Positions 2,127-42,253 of a stretch of DNA of 64,000 nt are shown one piece after another. Every line of letters starts with the position of its first letter. Position 1 is the first letter of the stretch. The DNA is from an uncultured Veillonellaceae bacterium (GTDB lineage: Bacteria > Bacillota > Negativicutes > UBA1444): contig CAZXCC010000001.1 in NCBI GenBank assembly GCA_964638945.1, positions 47,945 to 111,944 on the forward strand. Direction: 5' to 3'. Under the pieces are notes generated by a model. That model did not search any database. It saw only the letters and a program-made list of their open reading frames with translations, and was not told the DNA's origin. The translations under genes and the position numbers were made by a program.

Positions 2127-3725
2127 GTGGCTGATTTTCTGGAAACCCTGATCGAAGCGCTGCCTTTTATCGCACGCATTACAGGCGGATATGCGACAGT
2201 GACGGACAGGGACGGTGTCCGCATACGGACGTATGATTCCGAGGGGCAGGAAATAGTGGAGTGGCGGGGAACGGTCTTTGAGCTGGCGAGGGAAGTTGGT
2301 CAGAACGGCCAGGTCCGGATCGGGCCTTCCCAGATCATTGCCGATGCCGAGGCTTGGGCATTGCCGCTGGGTGAATATGTGATCGCCTCCAGCAATCTGG
2401 AAAGAGTGATGAGGGAGAAGGAGCTGCTTGAATCCTTGAAGTCGGCACTACCTTTTATTGCAAGGGTTGCCGGGGGGGAAGCCGTACTGTTCGACGAGGA
2501 AGGAAAACGCACTGCCAGTGTCGGATATGATGGGCAACCCAATACAAACTTTATCGGGCGAGTCAGTAAAGCTGCTCAAAAAGCCATGAAAACGGGTCGC
2601 CCGGTGATTGGGGAATCCATGTCGGCAAATGGTGCAATTGGTGTGAGGATTCCCATCACTCATAGTTTTGGTCTGGGGTTCAATAATGAGCATGGCGTGA
2701 TGCGGCAGCAGAAATTGATGGAGGAAGTAAAAAAATTTCAGTACGCACGCTATAATTTCACAGACATTGTCGGGAACAGCGAAGCGATTCAAAAAGTGAA
2801 AAGCATGGCCAGTTTTGTAGCAAATGGCATATCATCGATATTGATTCTGGGAGAAACCGGAACAGGAAAAGAGATGTTTGCCCAGTCCATCCATAATTGT
2901 AGCGAACGGCGCAGTAAACCTTTTATTGCGGTCAACTGCGGAGCTTTGCCGGCATCGATAATCGAAAGTTATCTGTTCGGTTATGTTGAGGGAGCGTTTA
3001 CGGGAGCCAAAAAGAGCGGCAGTCCGGGCGCTTTTGAGCAGGCAAACGGCGGAACCATTTTTCTCGACGAGCTTGGGGAAATGGATTTCAATTTACAGAG
3101 CAAATTGCTTAGAGTGCTGCAAGAACGGGAAGTAACGAGGATTGGCGGTTCAAAGCCGCTGCACATCGATGTACGGGTTATCGCTTCAACAAACCGTGAT
3201 TTGAGTGAAATGGTTACGGCGAACAAATTTCGCCAGGATCTATATTACAGGCTCAATGTTGTACAGCTGAAAATCCCGCCTCTGCGGGAACGGACCGAAG
3301 ATATTCCGGCTCTGGTCAAGGGAATGATTGACCGATTTAACAATATGCTTGGCAAATTTGTCGTGGGGATATCCGAAGAATGTATCGCCAAACTTTGTGA
3401 ACACAAATGGCCGGGCAATGTGCGGGAATTGCAGAATTGCGTCGAATATGCCATGAACATTATCGGCATCAATGATAGTGTTATCGAAGTGGAGCATTTG
3501 CCGCATAATATACAAAGTATCGTTCAAAACGGCAAAATTCAGACTGTCGGTACGTTGGCGGAAACGGTATTGCTGGCGGAAAAAGAGGCCATCCTAAAAG
3601 CGCTGGCATTCACCGGCCATGCGAAAAAGGAGACGGCCAGGCTCCTTGGCATCAGTACGACCACGCTATGGCGCAAAATGATTGAAACCGGCATTGAAAA
3701 TGCGCCTCCGCTTCCGGAAAAATGA
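2127..3725 (+). CDS. sigma-54-dependent transcriptional activator (NtrC-family EBP); N-terminus is two tandem copies of an uncharacterised roughly 95-aa sensory domain, then AAA+ sigma-54 interaction domain and C-terminal Fis-type HTH
   Basis: GETGTGKE Walker A, GAFTGA sigma-54 contact motif, C-terminal HTH; internal repeat ALPFIARITGG.. / ALPFIARVAGG..; GTG start with GAGGTG RBS. Confidence 0.85.
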   Translation: MADFLETLIEALPFIARITGGYATVTDRDGVRIRTYDSEGQEIVEWRGTVFELAREVGQNGQVRIGPSQIIADAEAWALPLGEYVIASSNLERVMREKELLESLKSALPFIARVAGGEAVLFDEEGKRTASVGYDGQPNTNFIGRVSKAAQKAMKTGRPVIGESMSANGAIGVRIPITHSFGLGFNNEHGVMRQQKLMEEVKKFQYARYNFTDIVGNSEAIQKVKSMASFVANGISSILILGETGTGKEMFAQSIHNCSERRSKPFIAVNCGALPASIIESYLFGYVEGAFTGAKKSGSPGAFEQANGGTIFLDELGEMDFNLQSKLLRVLQEREVTRIGGSKPLHIDVRVIASTNRDLSEMVTANKFRQDLYYRLNVVQLKIPPLRERTEDIPALVKGMIDRFNNMLGKFVVGISEECIAKLCEHKWPGNVRELQNCVEYAMNIIGINDSVIEVEHLPHNIQSIVQNGKIQTVGTLAETVLLAEKEAILKALAFTGHAKKETARLLGISTTTLWRKMIETGIENAPPLPEK

Positions 3726-4459: not shown

Positions 4460-4490
4460 TTGACAAAAAGACGGTACTCGTGATAATGTT
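4460..4490 (+). promoter_or_regulatory. possible sigma-A promoter (TTGACA, 16-17 nt, GATAAT with TG extension) followed by a GC hairpin at about 4510-4545
   Basis: pattern reading only. Confidence 0.3.
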
Positions 4491-4595
4491 CGAAATTATA
4501 ACAGTGGCAATGGAGCCGCCGCAAATGCGGTGGCTTTTGCTTTTTATTTTGCGAACCGATGGCGAAAATGTGCTGAGGGGAATTGTCTGATGCAT

Positions 4596-4611
4596 CGGCA
4601 CGATTCTTGCA
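4596..4611 (+). promoter_or_regulatory. sigma-54 (-24/-12) promoter CGGCACG-ATTC-TTGCA upstream of the soluble MCP-like gene
   Basis: GG at 4597-4598 and GC at 4609-4610 with canonical spacing; matches TGGCACG-N4-TTGCW except the first base. Confidence 0.6.
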
Positions 4612-5786: not shown

Positions 5787-5933
5787 TGTTTTGAAATGAA
5801 AATGATAAGTTGACCGCTGAAAATTGATGAAAAAATAAGTGGAATTCCAACCTTGCAATACAATCATACGGCGGACGAATGGCAATGAAGCCTGGCAAGA
5901 GATCTTGCGGGCTTTTTTGTTTGGAAGGCATAT

Positions 5934-25728: not shown

Positions 25729-28719
25729 TTGAAGTATGTTCAGAGAAGTACTCTGGAAAAGCGGGGAAGGATTTTGAAGAAATTTGTTGATTTGAAGGCG
25801 CGTTTTTCGGGAGTCCATGACCTGATCAAATTCAGGGTTACGGAAATACTATTGATATCTACTGCATATGACGGTTTTGTCCTCGAGGAGGACGGGCAGC
25901 TCACAGAACAGATTTATCATCAGTTCAACGATCTCAGCATTCCGTACATACCCAGGATTCATCGGGTGTCAAACAAGGACGAGGCACTGACCGAACTGCT
26001 GACAAGGCAGATCCATCTGATCATTACCATGTCCCGCATCAATGACACAGGTGCATTTGAAATTGAAACGGCCATACATGAAGCCTACCCGGAAATCCCG
26101 ATCGTGATGCTTTCTTACGATCGGCTGACACCGGAAATGATCGCCCAGATCAGGGATATTTCCTGCATCAACAGGGTATTCCACTGGTCGGGTGACAGCA
26201 AGATTCTGCTGGCCATCATAAAATACATAGAAGACCAGCAGAATGTTGAGGCGGACAGCAGGCTGGGAGTACAGGCAATCCTTTTGGTTGATGATTCTCC
26301 CATCTATTACTCGCAGATTTTGCCGATCATATATACGGAAATCCTGACACAGACGCGGTACCTGGTATTGCATGCCATGAATACCAGCCATGGCCTGCTT
26401 CGTGTTCGTCTGCGGCCGAAGATTCTTCTTGCGGAAACTTATGAAGAAGCAATGTCTATTATCAGCACTTACAGATACAATTTGCTGGGAGTAATTTCCG
26501 ATGTGAGATTTCCCAAGGATGGAGTGCTCAATCCATCCGCCGGTTTTGAACTTGCGCAAAGTGTGAGGGAAATGATCAGCGATTTTCCAGTGCTGCTCCA
26601 TTCGGAAGAGCAGGAAAACGCAGACAAAGCCAAAGCACTAAACATGCATTTTTTGAACAAAAACTCGCCTAACCTGCTGCATGATTTGCGCAACTTCATA
26701 ATGGAAAATTACGGTTTCGGCTCATTTGTGTTCAAGTATCCGGATGGCAGAATTATTGCAGAGGCGTCTGATATTACAAGCCTGGAAAGAATAATTCGTG
26801 ATCTCCCGGATGAGAGCCTGTATTATCACGCTGCCAATAATCATTTCTCACGCTGGTTCCGTGCCCGAACCGAATTTGAAGTAGCAGACAAATTGCGGCT
26901 GGTGGGTACGGAAGAACTGAGCAACATCGCGGACATCCGAACCTATATTCTAAAAGTGCTGAATGATTATTTTCAAAAGTATCAATCAGGCGTAATTCTG
27001 GATTTTGAAGGGCTAGCCAAAAAAGATATGGAGAATGCTTTCATTAAGCTTGGGACGGGTTCTTTGGGCGGAAAGGCCAGAGGAATTGCGTTTATTAATT
27101 CCATGATTGCGAAAGCCTGTCTGACGGATAAATACGAAGATATCAAAGTGAAGGTTCCCCGCTCATTCGTGATTTGCAGCGATGTTTTTGAAAAATTCAT
27201 CGAAGAGAATAACTTGTATCTCTTTTTTGCCAGCGCCCCGCGAGAGGAAGAGATTGCCCGAAAATTTACGGAAAGCGCTTTGCCGGCCACGATTCAGGAA
27301 AATCTGCGGGTTTTGACACAATATATAAAATGTCCGCTCGCAGTGCGGTCCTCAAGTATTTTGGAAGACTCACGCGTATTGCCTTTCGCTGGCATCTATA
27401 ATACCTACGTGGTTCCAAACAGTCATGAAGATCCGGAAATACGCTTTAAACAACTTTCGGACGCGGTAAAACTGGTGTATGCCTCGGTTTTTTACGCATC
27501 TCCTGTTCAATATGCAAAGAATGCGGATATTCGAATTGAAGAGGAAAAAATGGCTGTGCTGATCCAGGAACTCGTCGGAGAACGGTACGGTGACCTCTAT
27601 TATCCTGTCATTTCCGGCGTGGCCCAGTCCTATAACTTTTATCCGTATTATCCGATGAAACCGGAAGAAGGGACGGTAAGCCTGGCACTTGGACTGGGCA
27701 GGGCAATCGTTGACGGGGAACGTGTTTACAGATTTTCGCCGGATCATCCCAAACTGAACCCGCTATTTGCAAGTCCGGATGAATATATGAAAAAATCTCA
27801 AAACGCATTTTATGCCATTAATCTCAATACATCCGCCGATATCACTCTTCGGGCGGACGAAGGCTACACCTATGAAAAATTGTCCATATCCCAGGCAAAC
27901 AAAGATCAATCACTGGAATATATCGGCAGTACATATTCGATTGAAAATGACTGCATCTATGACAATATATATCAACCAGGTCCCAAACTGGTGACATTTG
28001 CTCCAATTCTCAAATATAACAGGCTGCCGCTTACGCAAATTATTAAAGATTTGCTCAGTCTGGGAAAACAATCCTTTGGTGCAAATGTTGAAATTGAATT
28101 TGCCGTCAATATTCCCAAGGATCCGAACAAGCCCAAAGAATTTAATTTCTTGCAAATCAGGCCGATGGTTGTCGGTAGAGAAGCACTTCAGGTCAATCTT
28201 GACGACAGGGAGGAAGCTCTGTGTTTCAGTTGCCGTACCATTGGCAATGGACTTCATAAAAATATCCATGACATAATTTTTGTCAATCCTGAGACGTTTA
28301 CCATACAGGACAGCGTTCAAATCGCGGATGAGATCGGTGAGCTCAACAGCATTCTGTTCAAGGAAGGGCGACGCTGCATACTCATCGGGTTTGGCCGAAT
28401 GGGAACATCGGACCGGTGGTTGGGGATTCCATTGACATGGGCGCAAATGTCTCAGGCACAAATTATCGTGGAAGTCGACCGGAAGGATTTGCGACCCGAA
28501 CCTTCGCTGGGGAGTCACTTCTTTCATAATCTGACCGCCACCAATATGGGATATTTCCACATCCAATACGACAATGAAGCGGAAGGGAAGATAGATTGGG
28601 ATTGGCTGACCAGGCAGCCGATTCTGGAGCAGACGAAACATGTGAAACTGGTTCGAAGGGAGGCGGAATTCAAGGCCAAACTGGATGGGAGAAACTTTAA
28701 AGGAATCGTGTACAAATAA
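25729..28719 (+). CDS. multidomain signalling protein: two receiver-like (REC) domains (first degenerate) then PEP synthase/pyruvate phosphate dikinase N-terminal (PPDK_N, ATP-grasp nucleotide-binding) domain; start uncertain
   Basis: ILLVDDSPIYY receiver motif; LGTGSLGGKARGIAFINSM resembles the PPDK_N ATP-binding region; C-terminal GFGRMGTSDRWLGIP resembles the phospho-His mobile-domain motif but lacks His. Confidence 0.6.
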   Translation: MKYVQRSTLEKRGRILKKFVDLKARFSGVHDLIKFRVTEILLISTAYDGFVLEEDGQLTEQIYHQFNDLSIPYIPRIHRVSNKDEALTELLTRQIHLIITMSRINDTGAFEIETAIHEAYPEIPIVMLSYDRLTPEMIAQIRDISCINRVFHWSGDSKILLAIIKYIEDQQNVEADSRLGVQAILLVDDSPIYYSQILPIIYTEILTQTRYLVLHAMNTSHGLLRVRLRPKILLAETYEEAMSIISTYRYNLLGVISDVRFPKDGVLNPSAGFELAQSVREMISDFPVLLHSEEQENADKAKALNMHFLNKNSPNLLHDLRNFIMENYGFGSFVFKYPDGRIIAEASDITSLERIIRDLPDESLYYHAANNHFSRWFRARTEFEVADKLRLVGTEELSNIADIRTYILKVLNDYFQKYQSGVILDFEGLAKKDMENAFIKLGTGSLGGKARGIAFINSMIAKACLTDKYEDIKVKVPRSFVICSDVFEKFIEENNLYLFFASAPREEEIARKFTESALPATIQENLRVLTQYIKCPLAVRSSSILEDSRVLPFAGIYNTYVVPNSHEDPEIRFKQLSDAVKLVYASVFYASPVQYAKNADIRIEEEKMAVLIQELVGERYGDLYYPVISGVAQSYNFYPYYPMKPEEGTVSLALGLGRAIVDGERVYRFSPDHPKLNPLFASPDEYMKKSQNAFYAINLNTSADITLRADEGYTYEKLSISQANKDQSLEYIGSTYSIENDCIYDNIYQPGPKLVTFAPILKYNRLPLTQIIKDLLSLGKQSFGANVEIEFAVNIPKDPNKPKEFNFLQIRPMVVGREALQVNLDDREEALCFSCRTIGNGLHKNIHDIIFVNPETFTIQDSVQIADEIGELNSILFKEGRRCILIGFGRMGTSDRWLGIPLTWAQMSQAQIIVEVDRKDLRPEPSLGSHFFHNLTATNMGYFHIQYDNEAEGKIDWDWLTRQPILEQTKHVKLVRREAEFKAKLDGRNFKGIVYK

Positions 28720-28946: not shown

Positions 28947-30320
<1,374 letters not shown>

Positions 30321-30345
30321 AATAAGTCTGTATGCGTTTGGCTTG

Positions 30346-30385
30346 AAACAAGGGGCTGTTCAGTATTGAACAGCCCCTTGTTTTC
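30346..30385 (+). terminator. rho-independent terminator of gdhA (16-bp stem AACAAGGGGCTGTTCA / TGAACAGCCCCTTGTT plus TTTT)
   Basis: read directly. Confidence 0.8.
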
Positions 30386-30439
30386 GTCGGTAAAGCGGGT
30401 GAGTTATCAACCCGCAATGGAAATTGCTCGAAGGGACTC

Positions 30440-30550
30440 TTGTCAGGTGAAATGTCGGGAGTTATAATAAGCGCAGGGCGTCAGTTTTTTGACACCATCG
30501 GAGCAAAGATGCTCGATTCTCCTATCGGAGGTCGCAGCATCTTTTTTTGA
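30440..30550 (+). ncRNA. candidate small RNA or leader/attenuator: consensus sigma-A promoter (TTGTCA, 17 nt, TATAAT at 30463-30468) and about 75 nt later a hairpin plus T7 terminator (about 30497-30548) just before the PAS sigma-54 activator gene
   Basis: promoter and terminator both read directly; no ORF between them. Confidence 0.4.
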
Positions 30551-30574
30551 TTTACTTCGCGGGGAGGGAATTTT

Positions 30575-32062
30575 GTGGATTTGGAGATGTATGATAAAAA
30601 GACTCGAGAAATTCTGACATCGGGTGATTCGGAACGATTGAAGAATTTTGCTATAGAACTGTTAGGCGGAGTGAACTTACAGCAGGTTCGATGGCAAGGT
30701 TTGCTTGATGTTTTGGAAGAGGCGGTTTGCGTGATTGACGACATGGAAAATGTCATAGGGTGGAACAGAAGAGCGGAAGCTCTTTATGGGATTTCTGCGA
30801 TGGAGATTATCGGACAGCCCATTGAAAAATTTTTTTCGAATTTGCTTTTGACACGGGCCATGAAAGACGGAAAGGTGCTGCGTGAAACCTATCATAAACC
30901 TTGTCCAGGAACCCATGTTCTGATCAATGCGCAACCGATCTATTTTCGTGGAAGAGTTGCGGGGGGGGTATCCGCCGAACGCGAAATTACGGAATTGGTA
31001 AATCTGAACCAGAAACTCTCGCAAGCCAGTCAGGAAGTCCAGACTTTGCGGGAGGAGATTGACAAGATACAAGCCAAAACTGACGAATTCTCCGCTATTT
31101 ATGGACATAGTCCCCTGATTGCCGAAGCTGTCCGTGTGGCACGACGCGTGGCAACCGCCAATGTGCCGATTCTGCTTCGCGGCGAAAGTGGAAGCGGGAA
31201 GGAACTGTTTGCCCGGGCCATCCATGATGCAAGCCATCGCAATGGAAGCTTTGTTGCCATAAACTGCGGCGCAATTCCTGCCAATTTGTTTGAAAGCGAA
31301 TTGTTCGGATATGAATCAGGAGCCTTTACCGGCGCCGACCGCAAGGGGAAATTCGGATTTTTGGAACGGTCCCACGGAGGAACGCTGTTTTTGGATGAAA
31401 TCGGTGAAATGCCGAAGGATATGCAGGTCAAATTGCTCAGAGTTTTGCAGGAACAAATTTTTTACAGAGTTGGCAGCACTAAGCCTGTTCATGTGGATTT
31501 GCGTGTCATTGCTGCGACACATCGCGACCTGGAAAGAATGATAAACCGGGGTGAATTTCGTGAAGACCTATATTACCGGATGAATGTTGTAACGATTCCA
31601 TTGCCCTCGCTGCGGGAAAGGAGGGAAGATATTCCAGAATTAGTGCACCGTGGATTGCGGTATTTTGGAAACCTTCATGCAAAAGTGATCCAACGCATCG
31701 ATCCGGCGGTTATGGCAGCGCTGCTGGATTATGAATGGCCGGGCAATGTCAGGGAATTATTCAATGTATTGGAAAGAATGGTCATTCTTTGTGATGGAGA
31801 CACGCTGAACCCGGAAAATCTTCCGATCAACCTGACGGACGAAAATAGCGCAAAAACCAAATATATGGCATTGTCAGCAGGTGGTTTGAATGCAATGACT
31901 GAAGATATGGAACGCAACCTGATCCAGCGTGTGCTTGAGGAGTCCAATAATAACAAAGCTATTGCGGCGCAAAAACTGGGAATTCCGCGAAGCACCCTTT
32001 ACTATAAAATGAATAGCTTGCGTATTGGAGTCAAGGACCTGACGCAAGTGTCGGAAAACTGA
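30575..32062 (+). CDS. sigma-54-dependent transcriptional activator with N-terminal PAS domain (RocR-like)
   Basis: GESGSGKE, GAFTGA, C-terminal HTH; GTG start after GGGAGGGA. Confidence 0.85.
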   Translation: MDLEMYDKKTREILTSGDSERLKNFAIELLGGVNLQQVRWQGLLDVLEEAVCVIDDMENVIGWNRRAEALYGISAMEIIGQPIEKFFSNLLLTRAMKDGKVLRETYHKPCPGTHVLINAQPIYFRGRVAGGVSAEREITELVNLNQKLSQASQEVQTLREEIDKIQAKTDEFSAIYGHSPLIAEAVRVARRVATANVPILLRGESGSGKELFARAIHDASHRNGSFVAINCGAIPANLFESELFGYESGAFTGADRKGKFGFLERSHGGTLFLDEIGEMPKDMQVKLLRVLQEQIFYRVGSTKPVHVDLRVIAATHRDLERMINRGEFREDLYYRMNVVTIPLPSLRERREDIPELVHRGLRYFGNLHAKVIQRIDPAVMAALLDYEWPGNVRELFNVLERMVILCDGDTLNPENLPINLTDENSAKTKYMALSAGGLNAMTEDMERNLIQRVLEESNNNKAIAAQKLGIPRSTLYYKMNSLRIGVKDLTQVSEN

Positions 32063-32110
32063 CAAAAAAAGAGGCTGTGAAAAAACAAAAACCCATCATG
32101 GATTAATGCG

Positions 32111-32154: not shown

Positions 32155-32170
32155 TGGCATGGTTTGTGCA
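32155..32170 (+). promoter_or_regulatory. sigma-54 promoter TGGCAT-GGTTT-GTGCA about 30 nt upstream of the dehydrogenase operon start
   Basis: GG 32156-32157, GC 32168-32169 with canonical spacing; -12 element GTGCA has one mismatch from TTGCA. Confidence 0.55.
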
Positions 32171-35528: not shown

Positions 35529-37076
35529 ATGTTGACAGAATATCGCAATGAACCGTTCACAAATTTTTCCCTGCCGGAGAACAAGGCTGCGATGGAGGCC
35601 GCACTCGCTCTGGTTGCATCGCAAAAAGGCCGTCACTACCCACTCCGGATTAACGGAGCTTCTGTGGATACGGAGGCCAAAATTACATCGGTCAACCCGT
35701 CCTGTATCAAGGAGGTCGTTGGAACGGTTGCGAGGGCAAACAGTGAACTTGCCGAAAAAGCGGTGCAGGCGGCAGTGACGGCATTCAAAAGCTGGAAACA
35801 GGTTGAGCCGGAAACACGTGCGAGGTTGTTGTTCAAAGCGGCTGCAATTTTACGCCGCCGCAAATTTGAATACTCTGCCTGGTTGGTGGCGGAGGCCGGA
35901 AAGAATTGGGCGGAAGCGGATGCTGACACAGCGGAAGCGATCGATTTCATGGAGTATTATGGGCGCGAAATGCTGCGTTATGCGGAAGGCATGACGGTGA
36001 CGTCCTATCCGGGAGAACAGAATGAGTGTTTTTATATTCCCTTGGGTGTTGGCGTCGTGATTCCGCCATGGAATTTCCCACTGGCCATTTTGGCAGGGAT
36101 GACGGCCGCTGCTGTTGTTACAGGAAATACTGTCATTATGAAACCGGCAAGCAGTACGCCGGTGATTGCCGCGAAACTTATGGAGCTGTTTGAAGAAGCC
36201 GGTGTGCCGGCAGGTGTAATAAATTACCTGCCTGGAAGTGGAGGCAGTATCGGTGACTTTCTTGTAACGCACCCACAGGTTCGTTTTATTAATTTCACCG
36301 GATCGAAGGAAGTCGGCCTGCGAATCAACAAACTTGCGGCTGATGTAGCGCCGGGACAAATCTGGATCAAACGCGTGGTTGCGGAGATGGGCGGCAAAGA
36401 TGCCATTATTGTCGACGAAGAAGCTGATCTGGAGGAGGCGGCTGCAGGCATCGTGACATCGGCTTTCGGTTTTCAGGGGCAAAAATGTTCAGCCTGTTCG
36501 CGTGCGATTGTGGTAAAAAGCGTATATGAAGAACTGGTGGCAAAAGTCGCAGCAAAGGCCAAAGCTCTTCGTGTGGGTCCGGCAGCGGAATTCGGCGTGA
36601 ATCTGGGTCCCGTTGTGGACGAAGGCGCTTATAAAAAAGTGCTTGAATATATTGAAATTGGCAAGAAAGAAGCCCGTCTGGTTGCTGGCGGAAACAAAGC
36701 GGGTGAGGAGGGGTGGTTCATTGAACCGACGGTGTTTGCAGATGCAGCGGCAAAGTCACGAATTGCGCAGGAAGAAATTTTTGGTCCGGTTGTTGCAATC
36801 ATTCCTGCCGATGATTTCGACGACGCACTGGATATTGCAAATGGTACGGAATATGGACTTACCGGCGCAGTCTACTCGAAAAATCGCGCAAAATTGGAGA
36901 AGGCCCGCCGTGAATTTCATGTCGGAAACCTCTATCTGAACCGGAAATGCACGGGAGCATTGGTTGGAGTACAGCCGTTTGGTGGATTCAACATGTCGGG
37001 TACAGATTCCAAAGCCGGTGGTGCAGATTATTTGCTTTTATTCCTTCAAGCGAAAGCAGTGGCGGAAAAATTGTAA
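35529..37076 (+). CDS. rocA: L-glutamate gamma-semialdehyde (1-pyrroline-5-carboxylate) dehydrogenase
   Basis: 515 aa aldehyde dehydrogenase with RocA/PutC-type N-terminus [10 protein letters not shown] and catalytic EMGGK / Cys region. Confidence 0.8.
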
Positions 37077-37094
37077 ATAATTTAAGAAAAACCC

Positions 37095-37123
37095 TTGAAA
37101 AAATAAATATCGAGTATTATAAT
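37095..37123 (+). promoter_or_regulatory. consensus sigma-A promoter TTGAAA - 17 nt - TATAAT driving a 216-nt untranslated leader ahead of the LivJ-like binding protein gene
   Basis: read directly. Confidence 0.55.
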
Positions 37124-37339
37124 CATCATCAAGACCTCTTGTAGTGGACAGATGGCTATAATTTCTCGAAAAGCAAAGAAGCTTTTTGGCTCAATACCGC
37201 CCTGGTATTTTGTCGAAAAGTTTCTTTTTTTCTTCAGCCAACTGCGGATTTGCGCAAATAGATGCGCTAAGTTGTATGAACTGAAGGGAGGCAGAAGTTT
37301 AGTCGTTTCGGGTATTTTAAAGTTTGAAAAAAGATTATT

Positions 37340-38536
37340 TTGGAGGGTGACAAGATGAGAAGAAATGGACTGTTCCTAGCACTTGTTCTTTTGGTTATCG
37401 GAATTTTTGCCGTTGCAGGATGTGGTGGCGGCAGCGCACCGGCAAAGCCTGCCGAATCGAAAGATATTAAAATCGGCGTGGTATATGAACTGACAGGAAA
37501 CACGGCATCCTTCGGCACAGCGGCAAATAACGGAACAAAACTTGCTTTTAAAGAAATCAATGCCGCTGGCGGAGTTCTGGGCAAACAGATCGCCATTGTC
37601 AGCGCGGACAACAAGGGAGAACCTTCTGAGTCAGCCAATGCAATGACAAAAGTAATCACTCAGGATAAAGTGGTTGCCGTAGTTGGTTTCACTACCAGTT
37701 CCAATGGGATTGCCGGCTCGGCTGTCAACGAAGCGAACAAGATTCCTTTCGTAGCAGCGGCTACAACCAATCCGAAAGTGACGGTGGATGAAGCGACAGG
37801 TAAGGCAAAACCATATACTTTCCGGGTTTGTTTTATCGACCCGTTTCAGGGGACGGTGGGCGCCAATTTCGTTCTGAAGGATCTGAAACTGAAAAAAGCT
37901 GTCGTTCTGATTGATAACTCCAGCGATTACAGCAAGGGACTGTCCAAGTTTTTTAAAGAGGCGTACACTAAGGGCGGTGGAACGATTCTCGGCGAAGAAG
38001 CTTATCTGCAAAAAGACAAGGACTTTAAAGCACTGTTAACCAAAATCAAAGGCCTGAACCCTGAAGTGATCTATCTGCCCGGTTATTATGAAGAAGCAGG
38101 CATGATCTCCAAACAGGCGCGTGAACTTGGCATTACCGTTCCCATCGTGGGCGGCGATGGCTGGGATTCTCCCAAATTGGTTGAAATCGGCACGGCTGCC
38201 GGTATGAACAACACATACTTCACCAATCACTATTCACCGGAAGATTCCAGTGCGGCTTCGAAAAAATTCGTCGACGCCTATAAGAAAGAATACGGTGTAA
38301 TGCCTGATGCGATGGCTGTTCTTGGCTATGATGCGGCATATGTCATGGCTGATGCGATCAAACGTGCTGGTGCAGCGGAACCGGCTAAGATTCAGGCCGC
38401 TTTGGTGGCAACGAAAGATTTTCCGGCTGTTACCGGCGCCACTACTCTGAATGATACCCATGATGCAGTGAAGAGTGCTGTTATCATCGAAATGAAAGAT
38501 GGCAAGATGGTTTATAAGACCACTGTCAAACCCTGA
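37340..38536 (+). CDS. ABC transporter substrate-binding lipoprotein, branched-chain amino acid (LivJ/Peripla_BP_6) family; orphan (no permease/ATPase adjacent)
   Basis: lipobox AVAGCGGGS; family-typical sequence; 398 aa. Confidence 0.75.
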   Translation: MEGDKMRRNGLFLALVLLVIGIFAVAGCGGGSAPAKPAESKDIKIGVVYELTGNTASFGTAANNGTKLAFKEINAAGGVLGKQIAIVSADNKGEPSESANAMTKVITQDKVVAVVGFTTSSNGIAGSAVNEANKIPFVAAATTNPKVTVDEATGKAKPYTFRVCFIDPFQGTVGANFVLKDLKLKKAVVLIDNSSDYSKGLSKFFKEAYTKGGGTILGEEAYLQKDKDFKALLTKIKGLNPEVIYLPGYYEEAGMISKQARELGITVPIVGGDGWDSPKLVEIGTAAGMNNTYFTNHYSPEDSSAASKKFVDAYKKEYGVMPDAMAVLGYDAAYVMADAIKRAGAAEPAKIQAALVATKDFPAVTGATTLNDTHDAVKSAVIIEMKDGKMVYKTTVKP

Positions 38537-38608: not shown

Positions 38609-38747
38609 CCGCTCCACAATAGTTCACAAAGTTGTAACAAATATGCCATAGTTTTGTAACGACTGCCGTCTATACTCATAAGTGAGTTCCCGTCATTCTG
38701 CAATAGGCAGGAAAATGGAGTTGCATGAGGTGAATGGAGGTAGATTT

Positions 38748-39257
38748 GTGAACAACAGAGCACCAAAAAAAATCGTCTGTTCTTTGTTAATCGGATTGCT
38801 GCAGTTCGGTGGAGGGGCTTATGTCGTTGAAGCGGCAGCAAGGGAAGAGCAACGGACTCAGCTTGCGGCGCCTCAGGATCCGTCAAAATTCGATAGGGCT
38901 CAGCAAGAGCGCTACTGGCAGGAACGTCGACATCTGCAGGAACAGGAACTGAATGAACGTCGCCGGGAAGAAGCTCTACGGCATGAACAGGAACTAAGGC
39001 GGCGCGAACGGGAAGACGAACGGGAATGGAAGAATCGGCAATGGCTGGAGCACCAGCGGATTCAACAACGGAACGAAGAACGCGCACGCAGGCAATGGTG
39101 GGAAAATCAGCGCCACGAAGAGGCAATGCGGCGGTTGGAATATGAAAGTGATCGTGAATGGCATCGGCGGCAATGGCAGGAGAAACAGCGCCATGAAGAA
39201 GCAATGCGTGAAATAGAAATAGGCGTATTAGCCTTGGCGGTACTTCTCGGCAAATGA
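38748..39257 (+). CDS. secreted/anchored low-complexity protein: signal peptide, long Arg/Glu/Gln/Trp-rich repetitive helical region (QRHEEAMR repeats), C-terminal hydrophobic anchor
   Basis: GTG start 7 nt after GGAGG; internal near-identical 27-nt DNA repeats at about 39108 and 39184; the antisense ORF 38512..39204 is judged spurious. Confidence 0.5.
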   Translation: MNNRAPKKIVCSLLIGLLQFGGGAYVVEAAAREEQRTQLAAPQDPSKFDRAQQERYWQERRHLQEQELNERRREEALRHEQELRRREREDEREWKNRQWLEHQRIQQRNEERARRQWWENQRHEEAMRRLEYESDREWHRRQWQEKQRHEEAMREIEIGVLALAVLLGK

Positions 39258-39385: not shown

Positions 39386-42253
39386 ATGGGCAAAGTAAAC
39401 CGACGGAATTTTTTGAAAGGATTGGGATGCGCGGCTGCAGTGGTGACCGCATGCAGTGTACCCGGAAAATATCTGCGCCCTGTGACTGGCGCAGCAGCGA
39501 ATACTTTCCACCGCATAAGCCGAGAAAGCGAATATGGACCGTGGGCGGCAGAGTTGTATCTAAATACGGCGAAATGGAATTCGGGGCAAACTGTTGAAGG
39601 GGAAACCGTTCTATATTTGCCTTTTGGGACTCGAGCGGCGATGGAAGCCGACGGCTTCATCCCGGAACGATGGATATGTCTTGTCACGGCTGAGCGGCTG
39701 TTCGATGCAAATGGGGATTTGCGTTTGATTAATGGGGTCGGATGCGCCACCTGTCTGACACCGGGAGGATTGGCCATCGAAGGCGGGGTGCAGGGTGCTT
39801 TGGGTTCTATGGGAGAGAAATCTTTTCGAGCCTATCTGGACGTGTATGTGGAAGCCAAACGTGCTGAGGCGCACGGGGATACCAATGTTGTTGAAACAGT
39901 AAGATTTCCATTCAAATATAAACTGGCTGAAGACATTCCGGCAGGAACAGTAAGGTTGCGTGTTGATTTTGGGATTGGCGAAAACAGGGCCGGACATGTC
40001 GGCCATAGGCATAGCCTCAACGGAGAAGGGTTTGCGCGACGGCAACGCGATGGCTGGTCCGGTTTCTTCTCGGCTCCGATACCAGTGAATATGGAGCCCG
40101 GGAAGAGGCGCATCCCTTGGGTGATTATGTCCCGATGGGGATCAAACGGGCAAAGGGGGATAGTTGCCGAGGAAGATAAAGGCAGATTTGCCTTGTCTCC
40201 CAGACATATTGCTCCTGCTGATCCAATTTTTCCTATGGAGGATTCGGGTGGGAGAAAGCAGGAATATGAGGTCATTCCTGACATACTGGCTTGGAAATCG
40301 GATAAACACCGTCAAATCGAATGGGCAAGCGAGGCGGGCTGGTTTTCTGCGGAGCTGCAGATGCCATCCGGAAAAAATCTGCAATTTGACAATCTGTCCC
40401 TCATTCCCGGTCTGGATGGAACGCTGGCTGTTTCCGATATGAAACGTTGCCGCTGGCGTCCGGAAGAATATGGTGAACATGTGCTGATACTAAGGGGTTA
40501 TTGTGTCGATACATGGGGAAACCATTATGATGGCGGGGGAACATATCGATTTTGGATAGCGGAACGCCTGACGATTGCTACAGCCACTTTTCTGGGTCTT
40601 GCTTTACAGGCCGGCCGGAACTATGGGGCTCCGATCGCCATGAATCCGGCTTTTGCTGGTGAAGTTTCCATTGAACTTCAATTGTATTCTGCATCAGAAA
40701 AACAACGGCGGAAGAATTTCCAATGTTCGGGGAAGAGCAATGAGAGCGGCGTTTTTGGTCCGGCGGAAGGATTGAAGCAATTTACTCTTGATGAACCAGG
40801 AGAGTATATTGCCAGGATCCGGGGAAAAGCCACGGATAAAAAAGGGCGTTTGTGGATGGCATCGTTGACTCATGCCGGGGTCGTGGTTCCTCCGGATACA
40901 ACAATTGAAGCGCGGGGCAAAAAGATTAAAATTGGACGAGCCTATGCACTGCGCGGCGAAACACATTCCGAGGGGTATGTTGAAAAAGGATTGCCGCCGT
41001 TGCCGGCAAATGGGAAGTACTCAAGGGCTGACCTGGCGAGATTCCGGTTTCTTGACCATATCAACTATCCCTGGTTTCCGCTTGACGTGCTTCTTGTCGC
41101 GAGTGAAGGGCAAGGCGCCAACAAGATTGAACCGGTATTAACGTACGTGCGAAAAGGAGAAACGGAAGATTTAAAGCGCGGTACATTGGGAATCGGGTAC
41201 TCCGAACTGCAGTTCCCGCAATGCGAGGGCGGCTGGGACCCCTTCACCCACCCTGAAAAAATAAGGCAAAAAGGCGGATATTGGTACGCAGCGGCACCGA
41301 GGCCAGGATTTATGTCCAGATTTATGGTGGCGACCAATGGCGTATTCGCGCCATACTGGCCTACAAGCAACACCAATTTCGGCGGCCAGGCTGGCGCCTC
41401 GGCAAATGGGGATATGCCTGGTGATATCTATCGTCTGCTCGGCGGTGTCGTTGTGCCGGAAAAAAACGGACCCCCCTCCTATGCCGGCTATTTGGCCAAC
41501 GCAGTCATTTTGCCTGCCGGATCAGGAAACAACCGCATCATATCTCCTGGACTGGAAGATTTGCCAGGACCTGACGGGAAACAGGGACGTTTTTTTCTTG
41601 TTGCGGTTCGTCCGGGAACGGTTTATGGCGCAGACGCCAGATTCACGCCTTTTTTGCAGATTGACCCGGTCGTGCAGGCGCAGGTTCGCTATGAACTGAT
41701 TTCGCCAGCCGGAAAGATTTATAGAGCAGAAGGCATTGGTAACATGGAGGGTTATTTTTTTGGCAGAGAAACCTGGCTGCTCAATGAACCCGGTGTCTGG
41801 ACGTACAGGATACAGGCGGAATTTGACGGAAAGCCCGGACGTATGCCCGGATTGCCGTCAACAGGCGGATGGCTTTTTGTTACTGAAAAGCGGAACGCAA
41901 TGAATGCGGCTAAACTTGATTTGGGAGTGCCTGACAAGTTGCCGTTTGACCCGGCAAAAGGGTTCAAGGTGCAGGGGATTACGACAGGACAGAGCGTGTT
42001 TCTCGCTGCAGTAGTGCCGGGATGTGTAGTGGGTCAATGGGAGATTCCTGTGCGGACAGGCCGGTTTGAATGGCAGTTTGATCCGGGATTCATTCATGAA
42101 AGGGTTCCCGCCTATGATATCAAGCATAGCGCTTCGGGGCGCGCGCAACTCGGGCGAATCGTGCATTTGACATATTTTACACGAACCCTTACCGGTTCAT
42201 GGGAATGGGCGCGAATCATCGTGCGCGGTCCGGTGGCTTTCAACGGAACCTGA
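39386..42253 (+). CDS. large (955 aa) Tat-exported protein of unknown function
   Basis: twin-arginine signal NRRNFLKGLGCAAAVVTA; no catalytic motif recognised. Confidence 0.65.
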   Translation: MGKVNRRNFLKGLGCAAAVVTACSVPGKYLRPVTGAAANTFHRISRESEYGPWAAELYLNTAKWNSGQTVEGETVLYLPFGTRAAMEADGFIPERWICLVTAERLFDANGDLRLINGVGCATCLTPGGLAIEGGVQGALGSMGEKSFRAYLDVYVEAKRAEAHGDTNVVETVRFPFKYKLAEDIPAGTVRLRVDFGIGENRAGHVGHRHSLNGEGFARRQRDGWSGFFSAPIPVNMEPGKRRIPWVIMSRWGSNGQRGIVAEEDKGRFALSPRHIAPADPIFPMEDSGGRKQEYEVIPDILAWKSDKHRQIEWASEAGWFSAELQMPSGKNLQFDNLSLIPGLDGTLAVSDMKRCRWRPEEYGEHVLILRGYCVDTWGNHYDGGGTYRFWIAERLTIATATFLGLALQAGRNYGAPIAMNPAFAGEVSIELQLYSASEKQRRKNFQCSGKSNESGVFGPAEGLKQFTLDEPGEYIARIRGKATDKKGRLWMASLTHAGVVVPPDTTIEARGKKIKIGRAYALRGETHSEGYVEKGLPPLPANGKYSRADLARFRFLDHINYPWFPLDVLLVASEGQGANKIEPVLTYVRKGETEDLKRGTLGIGYSELQFPQCEGGWDPFTHPEKIRQKGGYWYAAAPRPGFMSRFMVATNGVFAPYWPTSNTNFGGQAGASANGDMPGDIYRLLGGVVVPEKNGPPSYAGYLANAVILPAGSGNNRIISPGLEDLPGPDGKQGRFFLVAVRPGTVYGADARFTPFLQIDPVVQAQVRYELISPAGKIYRAEGIGNMEGYFFGRETWLLNEPGVWTYRIQAEFDGKPGRMPGLPSTGGWLFVTEKRNAMNAAKLDLGVPDKLPFDPAKGFKVQGITTGQSVFLAAVVPGCVVGQWEIPVRTGRFEWQFDPGFIHERVPAYDIKHSASGRAQLGRIVHLTYFTRTLTGSWEWARIIVRGPVAFNGT

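Follow-up and report, generated by a model that had tools for sequence, protein, structure and literature searches.

The region described here is a short leader directly upstream of a gene for a sigma-54 activator (an enhancer-binding protein) in a 64,000-nucleotide stretch of DNA from an uncultured Veillonellaceae bacterium (Bacillota, Negativicutes; GenBank assembly GCA_964638945.1, contig CAZXCC010000001.1, positions 47,945 to 111,944 of the forward strand). This whole stretch is referred to as the window, and all positions are given in its numbering. The nearest genome matches of the window are Negativicutes and Veillonellaceae metagenome-assembled genomes with 71–72% identity. The leader consists of a sigma-A (sigma-70-type) promoter, an inverted repeat, and an intrinsic terminator whose 5′ strand overlaps a second, shorter hairpin. 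The coordinates of these features are collected in Table 1. The region very probably serves as a regulated terminator/antiterminator leader.

Gene Order and the Activator Gene

The gene on the 5′ side of the leader (28965–30320) encodes NADP-glutamate dehydrogenase and has its own terminator at about 30343–30380, so the promoter–terminator pair is a separate unit. The first-pass annotation of the window had placed here a TTGTCA-17-TATAAT promoter with a transcription start near 30475 and, ahead of the GTG codon of the activator gene, a hairpin with a run of seven T's. Both are present. The promoter hexamers agree with the consensus at 11 of 12 positions, the predicted transcription start lies at about 30475 downstream of the TATAAT box, and the T run, which overlaps the 3′ end of the hairpin, ends 26 nt before the GTG at 30575. 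The pair had also been described as free of an open reading frame (ORF), which agrees with the comparative data, the ORF of 13 codons from an ATG at 30509 not being kept among orthologues. Three points go beyond that annotation, namely that what looks like the first hairpin in the leader is most likely a site where the activator binds DNA, that the leader carries a switch probably of the ANTAR type, and that the same switch precedes a binding-protein gene further downstream (37172).

The activator is a protein of 495 amino acids with PAS, Sigma54_activat, AAA_lid, and HTH_8 domains (Pfam). Its top NCBIfam match is TF_PrdR at 566 bits, below the cut-off of 795 for this family, and the activator is therefore named PrdR-like and not PrdR. 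The operon on its 3′ side, beyond 32155, encodes Fer2_4, Pyr_redox_2, Fer4, Fer2_BFD, and DAO proteins that resemble the alpha and beta subunits of sarcosine oxidase, and this set would form a heteromeric proline-dehydrogenase-like complex. The Aldedh protein of the same operon is an L-glutamate gamma-semialdehyde dehydrogenase (845 bits against a cut-off of 648), and the operon ends with a LivJ-like binding protein that has a lipoprotein signal peptide. The involvement of proline guessed in the first-pass annotation fits an operon of this content.

Table 1. Control elements of the activator gene and of its target operon, with the second copy of the switch (window coordinates).
Feature	Position	Strand	Description
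Sigma-A (sigma-70-type) promoter	30440..30468	+	TTGTCA 30440-30445, 17-nt spacer, TATAAT 30463-30468
Inverted repeat (probable operator)	30479..30494	n/a	CGTCAGTTTTTTGACA (consensus TGTCA-N6-TGACA); about +5 to +20 of the sigma-A promoter
Antiterminator hairpin P2	30497..30517	+	Core GAGC-AAAGAU-GCUC 30501-30514; hexaloop 30505-30510 with A at position 1 and G at position 4
Intrinsic terminator (predicted)	30505..30548	+	Bulged hairpin 30505-30544 and U7 30542-30548
Shine-Dalgarno sequence and activator gene	30561..32062	+	GGGGAGGG 30561-30568; GTG 30575 to stop 32062
Two tandem inverted repeats, probable enhancer (upstream activating sequence)	32029..32064	n/a	AGTCAAGGACCTGACG and TGTCGGAAAACTGACA; 20 bp centre to centre
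Sigma-54 promoter	32155..32170	+	TGGCATGGTTTGTGCA; promoter of the Fer2_4 / Pyr_redox_2 / Fer4 / Fer2_BFD / DAO / Aldedh operon
Second switch copy, leader of the binding-lipoprotein gene (37340)	37095..37231	+	Sigma-A promoter, P2, and terminator

Conservation of the Leader in Negativicutes

Orthologues of the activator with 56–84% amino-acid identity are common in Sporomusaceae and related Negativicutes. Leaders were collected in two sets. The protein-derived set comprises 11 distinct loci (the window, L001, L002, L081–L086, L088, and L089; L087 duplicates the leader of L086), and the second set comprises 12 distinct leaders from a DNA-pattern scan of metagenomes, giving a total of 23 distinct leaders. 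The scan returned 96 matches (L090–L185), 15 of which are true leaders, 12 of them distinct, while about 65 of the 96 are false positives within one highly conserved, high-GC coding sequence that occurs in many environments (GTCATGCCGCCGAC...CTGCAGCTTTT).

All 23 leaders have a common layout, which in the 11 protein-derived loci consists of a -10 box, the repeat (T)GTCA-N6-TGAC(A), the hairpin RGC-AAAGAY-GCY, and a long hairpin with a U run. The -10 box is mostly TATAAT and lies 6–15 nt on the 5′ side of the repeat in nearly all of them; two leaders, L086 and L122, have only a weak box (TGTAAA/TGTAAC). The unit stands directly 5′ of the activator gene in 23 of 23 cases, with 20–110 variable nucleotides between the terminator and the Shine-Dalgarno sequence. 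The genes on the other side vary from locus to locus and include those for glutamate dehydrogenase, a Crp-family regulator, pyroglutamyl peptidase, Cu-oxidase_4, PilO, and others, which argues that the leader travels with the activator gene. The promoter–terminator pair is a real, conserved control region and not a product of chance.

The Terminator and the Competing Hairpin

The terminator hairpin (30505–30544) folds in ViennaRNA with -21.2 kcal/mol (z = -4.4), and none of 200 shuffled sequences was as stable. A simple consensus scanner for promoters and terminators did not call the 30505–30548 terminator because its stem has a bulge. Termination at this point would yield a leader transcript of about 74 nt. 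The hairpin P2, which can be extended to AUCG(G)AGC...GCUCGAU, lies partly within the same sequence: its loop and 3′ half double as the 5′ strand of the terminator, the stem of which begins at 30505 inside the P2 loop. The two structures are therefore mutually exclusive. P2 alone has a predicted free energy of -6.3 kcal/mol, and given this difference in stability, termination would be the default and read-through would need a factor that stabilizes P2.

Covariation in the alignment of the 23 leader sequences (alignment A1) supports both structures. At the base of the terminator (columns 27–35 with 71–79), 98.6% of the cells are paired, and there are 10 two-sided changes, exchanging UA and CG in seven sequences and AU and CG in three. 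All 23 leaders fold into a hairpin followed by a U run, and the sequence of the inner stem is wholly lineage-specific. For P2, 98.9% of the cells are paired across the 23 sequences, and its outer pair occurs as AU (10), GC (5), CG (2), UA (2), and GU (2). The covariation score of P2 was reached by none of 500 shuffles, and slid controls paired in only 18–49%. Its arms covary, with G-U pairs in some leaders, and its loop and closing GC pairs are constant, a pattern that argues for recognition as RNA and not for a DNA palindrome.

The Probable Operator of the Activator

The inverted repeat at 30479–30494 behaves differently from P2. Over the 23 leaders, the sequence of its arms is kept with zero two-sided compensatory changes, and departures from it are mismatches. 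In L114, this repeat begins just 6 nt after the -10 box, so that it could not be fully transcribed as an RNA hairpin. The uncompensated arms and this spacing lead us to read the 5′ repeat as a site of protein–DNA interaction and not as an RNA structure.

The likely protein is the activator itself. The leader repeat shares its motif, in the window and in the orthologues, with the tandem repeats on the 3′ side of the gene. These tandem repeats (32029–32044 and 32049–32064) lie about 100–125 bp upstream of the sigma-54 promoter and overlap the last codons of the activator gene, the stop codon TGA falling within the second repeat. At the equivalent sigma-54 promoter position, the orthologues have TGGCACGG-N-TTGCA-type boxes. 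At least one copy of the repeat is present about 90–310 bp upstream of the -24/-12 box in all orthologous loci that reach this far except L185; most such loci hold two tandem copies, and each locus also has one copy in the leader. The repeat at 30479–30494 is thus likely to be the activator's own DNA site. Since the leader repeat has the motif of the enhancer repeats, the activator probably represses its own sigma-A promoter by binding at about +5 to +20.

Resemblance to ANTAR Targets

The loop and the closing pairs of P2 resemble the RNA element recognized by the ANTAR antiterminator EutV. This element, AGCAANGRRGCUY, coincides in part with the 5′ half of the eut terminators, and the published alignments give a P2 consensus of RRGY-AAHGDV-GCYY, with Desulfotomaculum sites that have AAUGAU and AACGAU loops (Ramesh et al. 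2012, PMC3369931). Near-identical pairs are found between these sites and the present leaders, namely eutG GAAGC-AAAGAC-GCUUC of E. faecalis with CAAGC-AAAGAC-GCUUG of L085, and eutS GAGC-AAAGAA-GCUC with GAGC-AAAGAU-GCUC of the window. The window leader (AGCAAAGAUGCUC) equals the eut element at 12 of 13 positions, and the orthologous leaders at 9–12, most of them at 11–12.

A position matrix was built solely from 26 distinct published ANTAR P2 hairpins and run over both strands of the window (about 128,000 positions). Its top four sites were 37172 (17.7 bits), 5881 (16.4), 30502 (16.1), and 4506 (15.5). Each of them is an intergenic site on the + strand that shares sequence with the 5′ arm of a hairpin with a T run after it. 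Of 31 matches scoring 14 bits or more in 197 kb of Negativicutes loci, 25 precede a run of at least five T's, and a 26th match is a binding-protein leader with only four T's. The corresponding count in 662 kb of unrelated control loci is 2 of 22. In the literature, ANTAR regulons are typically centred on nitrogen metabolism, a theme that fits the presumed pathway from proline to glutamate beside a glutamate dehydrogenase gene. The features of an ANTAR target found here are a hexaloop hairpin with A1 and G4, a P2 that excludes the terminator, and the nitrogen link together with four sites in the window.

Several observations weigh against an ANTAR-type reading. The canonical ANTAR substrate is a pair of hexaloop hairpins, with a P1–P2 linker of 5–12 nt in the E. 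faecalis eut leaders, and P1 is required for antitermination in vivo in E. faecalis (eutP). No P1 (SYAC-AAHGRH-GUDB; YAC-AAHGRH-GUR) is found in the orthologous leaders or at the four window sites, and the transcript begins just 10–30 nt before P2. Position 6 of the loop is U or C in the present leaders, where the 13-nt eut consensus has R. The 2022 structure of EutV with RNA revises the smallest unit needed for binding to one hexaloop and leads to the prediction of sites of this kind, and it leaves the sufficiency of one hexaloop for antitermination undemonstrated. Pfam scans covering about 40 of the window's 54 candidate ORFs (64 kb) detected no gene with an ANTAR domain, none was present up to 10 kb from the operon in each of three relatives (L186–L188), and tblastn with approximate consensus probes, which is a weak test, gave no match. 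Furthermore, the scan pattern behind 12 of the 23 leaders fixed the loop and the terminator base, so the conservation of these positions in those 12 is by construction; the 11 protein-derived leaders carry the same features. All of the evidence is computational.

A comparison with Rfam covariance models, proposed in the first-pass annotation, found none relevant at E values up to 10 in 30250–30700 or in 37050–37350, and none at the gathering score in the whole window. The 5′ repeat was considered as a P1 hairpin and rejected, its loops (GUUUUU, AUUAAC, GAAAUC, and others) having no G4, its arms being the enhancer motif, and its changes being uncompensated. A canonical dual-hexaloop ANTAR site was likewise rejected, as the sole upstream hairpin is the TGTCA-N6-TGACA operator. 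P2 is best treated as an element that works like an ANTAR target and is a variant, not a canonical member, because P1 is missing and no ANTAR gene was found in the sequences scanned.

Other Copies of the Switch

The top matrix site (37172) belongs to a second copy of the switch, located between the aldehyde dehydrogenase gene and the gene of the binding lipoprotein. Its promoter consists of TTGAAA at 37095, a 17-nt spacer, and TATAAT at 37118–37123. The hairpin, AAAAGC-AAAGAA-GCUUUU (12-mer 37172–37183; AGCAAAGAAGCUU), equals the eut element at 13 of 13 positions, and the terminator extends to a T7 run at 37225–37231. No TGTCA-N6-TGACA operator is present in 37095–37231, which indicates that the hairpin/terminator module is a reusable RNA element independent of the operator. 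This copy is kept in every locus that has the binding-protein gene (L082, L083, L084, L109, L114, L124, L185, L186, and L187), and it is absent from L188, where the binding-protein gene is also absent. Loops of the binding-protein leaders in relatives are AAUGGA, AAUGGC, AAAGGU, AAAGUU, and AAUGGU. The binding-protein leaders of the window, L082, and L083 have about 50 nt of additional 5′ sequence with a possible AUCAUC...GAUGAU pairing.

The two remaining sites lie near the start of the window. At 4506 (4461–4548), a GGC-AAUGGA-GCC hairpin overlaps a terminator of -24 kcal/mol, and at 5881 (5854–5918), a GGC-AAUGAA-GCC hairpin overlaps one of -20 kcal/mol. Both sites are just upstream of sigma-54-type promoters, CGGCACGATTCTTGCA (4596) and TGGCACGGCTCTTGCA (5934) respectively, and not directly before a gene. 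They could serve sigma-A read-through into the sigma-54 operons or produce decoy RNAs.

Proposed Mechanism

The sequence elements, their conservation, the compensatory support for both RNA structures, and the match to the published ANTAR sites are observed. A model that joins them into ANTAR-type transcription attenuation with autoregulation of the PrdR-like activator gene is, on balance, the one that we favour; within it, we infer the binding of the activator to its operator, the identity of the RNA-binding factor, and the signal to which this factor responds. The sigma-A promoter would fire with a start near 30475, and the activator would repress this promoter through the operator at +5 to +20. 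Unless something intervenes, the 30505–30548 terminator would form in the growing RNA and end transcription at about 74 nt, leaving 26 nt to the start codon. When P2 is clamped by an ANTAR-type antiterminator protein, polymerase would read through into the activator gene. A clamp of this type is the most likely one because P2 is too weak alone (-6 against -21 kcal/mol) and matches the published element. The activator would then drive the sigma-54 proline operon from the tandem enhancer sites and would add a signal of its own through the PAS domain, probably proline. Since the same switch stands at 37172 and two further sites lie at 4506 and 5881, several catabolic units may be gated by one ANTAR-like regulator whose gene lies elsewhere and whose signal is plausibly nitrogen status.

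A more far-reaching proposal, which we regard as tentative and rather doubtful, is that antitermination in Sporomusaceae and related Negativicutes can work through one hexaloop, without a P1. The reader would be either an ANTAR protein in a mode new for antitermination or another RNA-binding factor convergent on this loop, and it would stand above sigma-54 activators in a cascade. In this form, one hairpin 10–30 nt from the 5′ end may suffice, and the factor may control synthesis of the activator and of its binding protein as well as the passage of sigma-A transcripts into sigma-54 operons.

Alternative Explanations

It is possible, if unlikely, that the leader is a regulated attenuator whose hairpin is read by a protein of another kind or by a kinetic mechanism involving NusA/NusG or polymerase speed; in the kinetic version, the short hairpin would merely delay folding of the terminator and so fix a partial read-through. 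The terminator/antiterminator pair, itself well supported, would be the same under this explanation, which is also favoured by the missing second hairpin at all four window sites and by the failure to find an ANTAR gene in the scanned window ORFs or near the operon in relatives. However, the conserved loop and closing GC/GC pairs point to sequence-specific recognition and not to a generic delay, and it would be a striking coincidence for a matrix made from published ANTAR sites to pick exactly those sites that overlap terminators. An improbable alternative is that the main product is a free small RNA of about 74 nt, working in trans either on mRNAs or as a decoy for a protein, with the activator expressed by leaky termination. 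A near-consensus promoter with a strong terminator would indeed make a short transcript the main product when uninduced, the modules at 4506 and 5881 precede a sigma-54 promoter and not directly a gene, and sequestration of an ANTAR protein by an RNA has a published precedent in EutX/Rli55. However, the leaders contain no seed region that is both conserved and unpaired: conservation is confined to the operator arms and to the stems of P2 and the terminator, and the terminal loop and inner stem vary. In addition, the terminated RNA would hide the ANTAR-like loop within the terminator stem, no Rfam model matches, and the constant position directly 5′ of the activator gene in all 23 leaders does not fit a product acting in trans. 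The first-pass annotation had offered a small RNA and an attenuation leader as its two readings. The attenuation leader is supported by the compensatory changes in the terminator and in the exclusive hairpin and by the fit of this hairpin to a known antiterminator-protein target, and the small RNA is disfavoured by the lack of a seed.

In another explanation, both inverted repeats would be DNA sites, and the hairpin and T run an ordinary terminator or insulator with no functional alternative RNA structure. The first repeat does behave as a DNA site, and the P2 region, taken as DNA, likewise has two inverted arms 6 nt apart. We consider this explanation very improbable: compensating arms (with G-U pairs in L084, L100, L109, and L124) around a constant spacer are the signature of an RNA hairpin whose loop is recognized, the opposite of what a protein–DNA site would show, and an insulator on the 3′ side of a gene's own promoter would have no obvious purpose. 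Attenuation by a ribosome-translated leader peptide or by reiterative transcription of the pyrG type is already contradicted by the comparative data. The ATG at 30509 follows a GGAG and opens its 13 codons through the terminator, yet it is CTG in L001, L002, and L083, and the length, stop, and Shine-Dalgarno sequence of the ORF vary among the orthologues. The pyrG transcript of B. subtilis begins with GGGC, as the predicted transcript does here, but this start is found in only 2 of the 23 leaders (the window and L081). A CsrA-type site was also considered for the likeness of the loop to ARGGAU; CsrA requires a GGA triplet, which is absent, and this candidate was rejected.

Comparison with Known Systems

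The closest known relative of the proposed ANTAR-type switch is the eut system of E. faecalis and Listeria, which is controlled by EutV (PMC3369931). Both have a GC-closed A1/G4 hexaloop hairpin whose 3′ half is the 5′ strand of a terminator, both occur in several copies per regulon, and both are associated with nitrogen-related catabolism. In contrast to the eut leaders, the present ones have no A1/G4 P1, their P2 is 10–30 nt from the transcript start, and position 6 of the loop is a pyrimidine. The controlled gene is that of a sigma-54 activator instead of a catabolic enzyme, the host belongs to the Negativicutes, and the ANTAR reader is putative. In the supplementary tables of Ramesh et al. 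(PMC3369931), no ANTAR matches stand beside sigma-54 regulators or in Negativicutes, and attenuators and terminators go unmentioned in a survey of Clostridiales sigma-54 regulons.

NasR and the nasF leader of Klebsiella oxytoca also combine control by sigma-54 and an enhancer-binding protein with ANTAR-type antitermination in a nitrogen-related pathway. In nasF, the leader with the ANTAR site is transcribed from the sigma-54 promoter, whereas in the present locus the ANTAR-like leader belongs to the enhancer-binding-protein gene and has a sigma-A promoter. Because the leader precedes this gene, the two controls would act in series, as a cascade, and not on one transcript. The amidase operon of Pseudomonas aeruginosa (AmiR/AmiC) resembles the present locus in having an ANTAR hairpin over a leader terminator and a gene with the periplasmic-binding-protein fold in the operon. 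Unlike AmiC, the binding protein here has a lipoprotein signal peptide, so that it would be extracytoplasmic and not a cytoplasmic partner of the AmiC kind, and no AmiR-like gene follows. An AmiC/AmiR-like pair was considered and rejected, the binding protein being a lipoprotein and the next ORF, of 191 amino acids, having no Pfam (ANTAR) domain.

Negative autoregulation is known for other enhancer-binding proteins, including NtrC at glnAp1/glnLp and RocR of Bacillus subtilis. As in these systems, a copy of the activator's enhancer motif overlaps the region of its own sigma-70-type promoter. The present site differs in lying just past the transcription start and in being followed by a separate RNA switch, and binding to it is suggested by motif identity only. 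PrdR of Clostridioides difficile is likewise a proline-responsive sigma-54 activator; both proteins have the PAS-AAA+-HTH build and are linked to control of proline catabolism. The difference lies in the target, which here is an oxidative operon (the proline-dehydrogenase-like proteins and L-glutamate gamma-semialdehyde dehydrogenase) and not proline reductase.

The proposed mechanism is thus of a known kind, and its new aspects are the P1-less build, the place before an enhancer-binding-protein gene that has its own operator, and the Negativicutes host. If it is true, an RNA antitermination switch gates the gene of an enhancer-binding protein that is also subject to its own operator, and the proline operon depends on two independent signals acting one after the other, the first carried by the RNA-binding factor and the second by the PAS domain of the activator. 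ANTAR-type control would also extend to Negativicutes and possibly to a nicotinate-like catabolic cluster. Together with the binding-protein leaders, the 23 leaders form a conserved family of ANTAR-like sites without the first hairpin, which bears on the question left by the 2022 EutV–RNA structure of whether one hexaloop is enough for antitermination. For genome annotation, an apparently orphan promoter–terminator pair is explained.

Other Genes in the Window

Near the start of the window, a histidine ammonia-lyase-type gene (Lyase_aromatic, 514–2076) is followed by a second sigma-54 enhancer-binding protein (2127–3725), in which Pfam recognizes no N-terminal sensor domain. This protein may control the sigma-54 promoters at 4596 and 5934. 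The genes at about 5.8–23.3 kb encode a [2Fe-2S] Fer2_2 subunit, an AA_synth protein (PF06684), an aconitase small subunit, a MutL-type reactivase, a lyase of the PEP_mutase/isocitrate-lyase family, and a FAD_binding_5 flavoprotein; this set may be akin to the cluster for nicotinate fermentation in Eubacterium barkeri.

The gene at 25729–28719, which immediately precedes that for glutamate dehydrogenase, encodes a protein of 996 amino acids with an unusual architecture, combining a weak match to a response-regulator receiver domain with PPDK_N (PEP-utilising, ATP-grasp). The 191-amino-acid ORF (38682–39257) encodes a charged repeat protein rich in E, R, Q, and W, with hydrophobic ends and no Pfam family above threshold. 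It is followed at 39386–42253 by a gene for a protein of 955 amino acids, also with no Pfam family above threshold, in which a TAT (twin-arginine translocation) signal and a Jacalin lectin domain are matched at scores below threshold.

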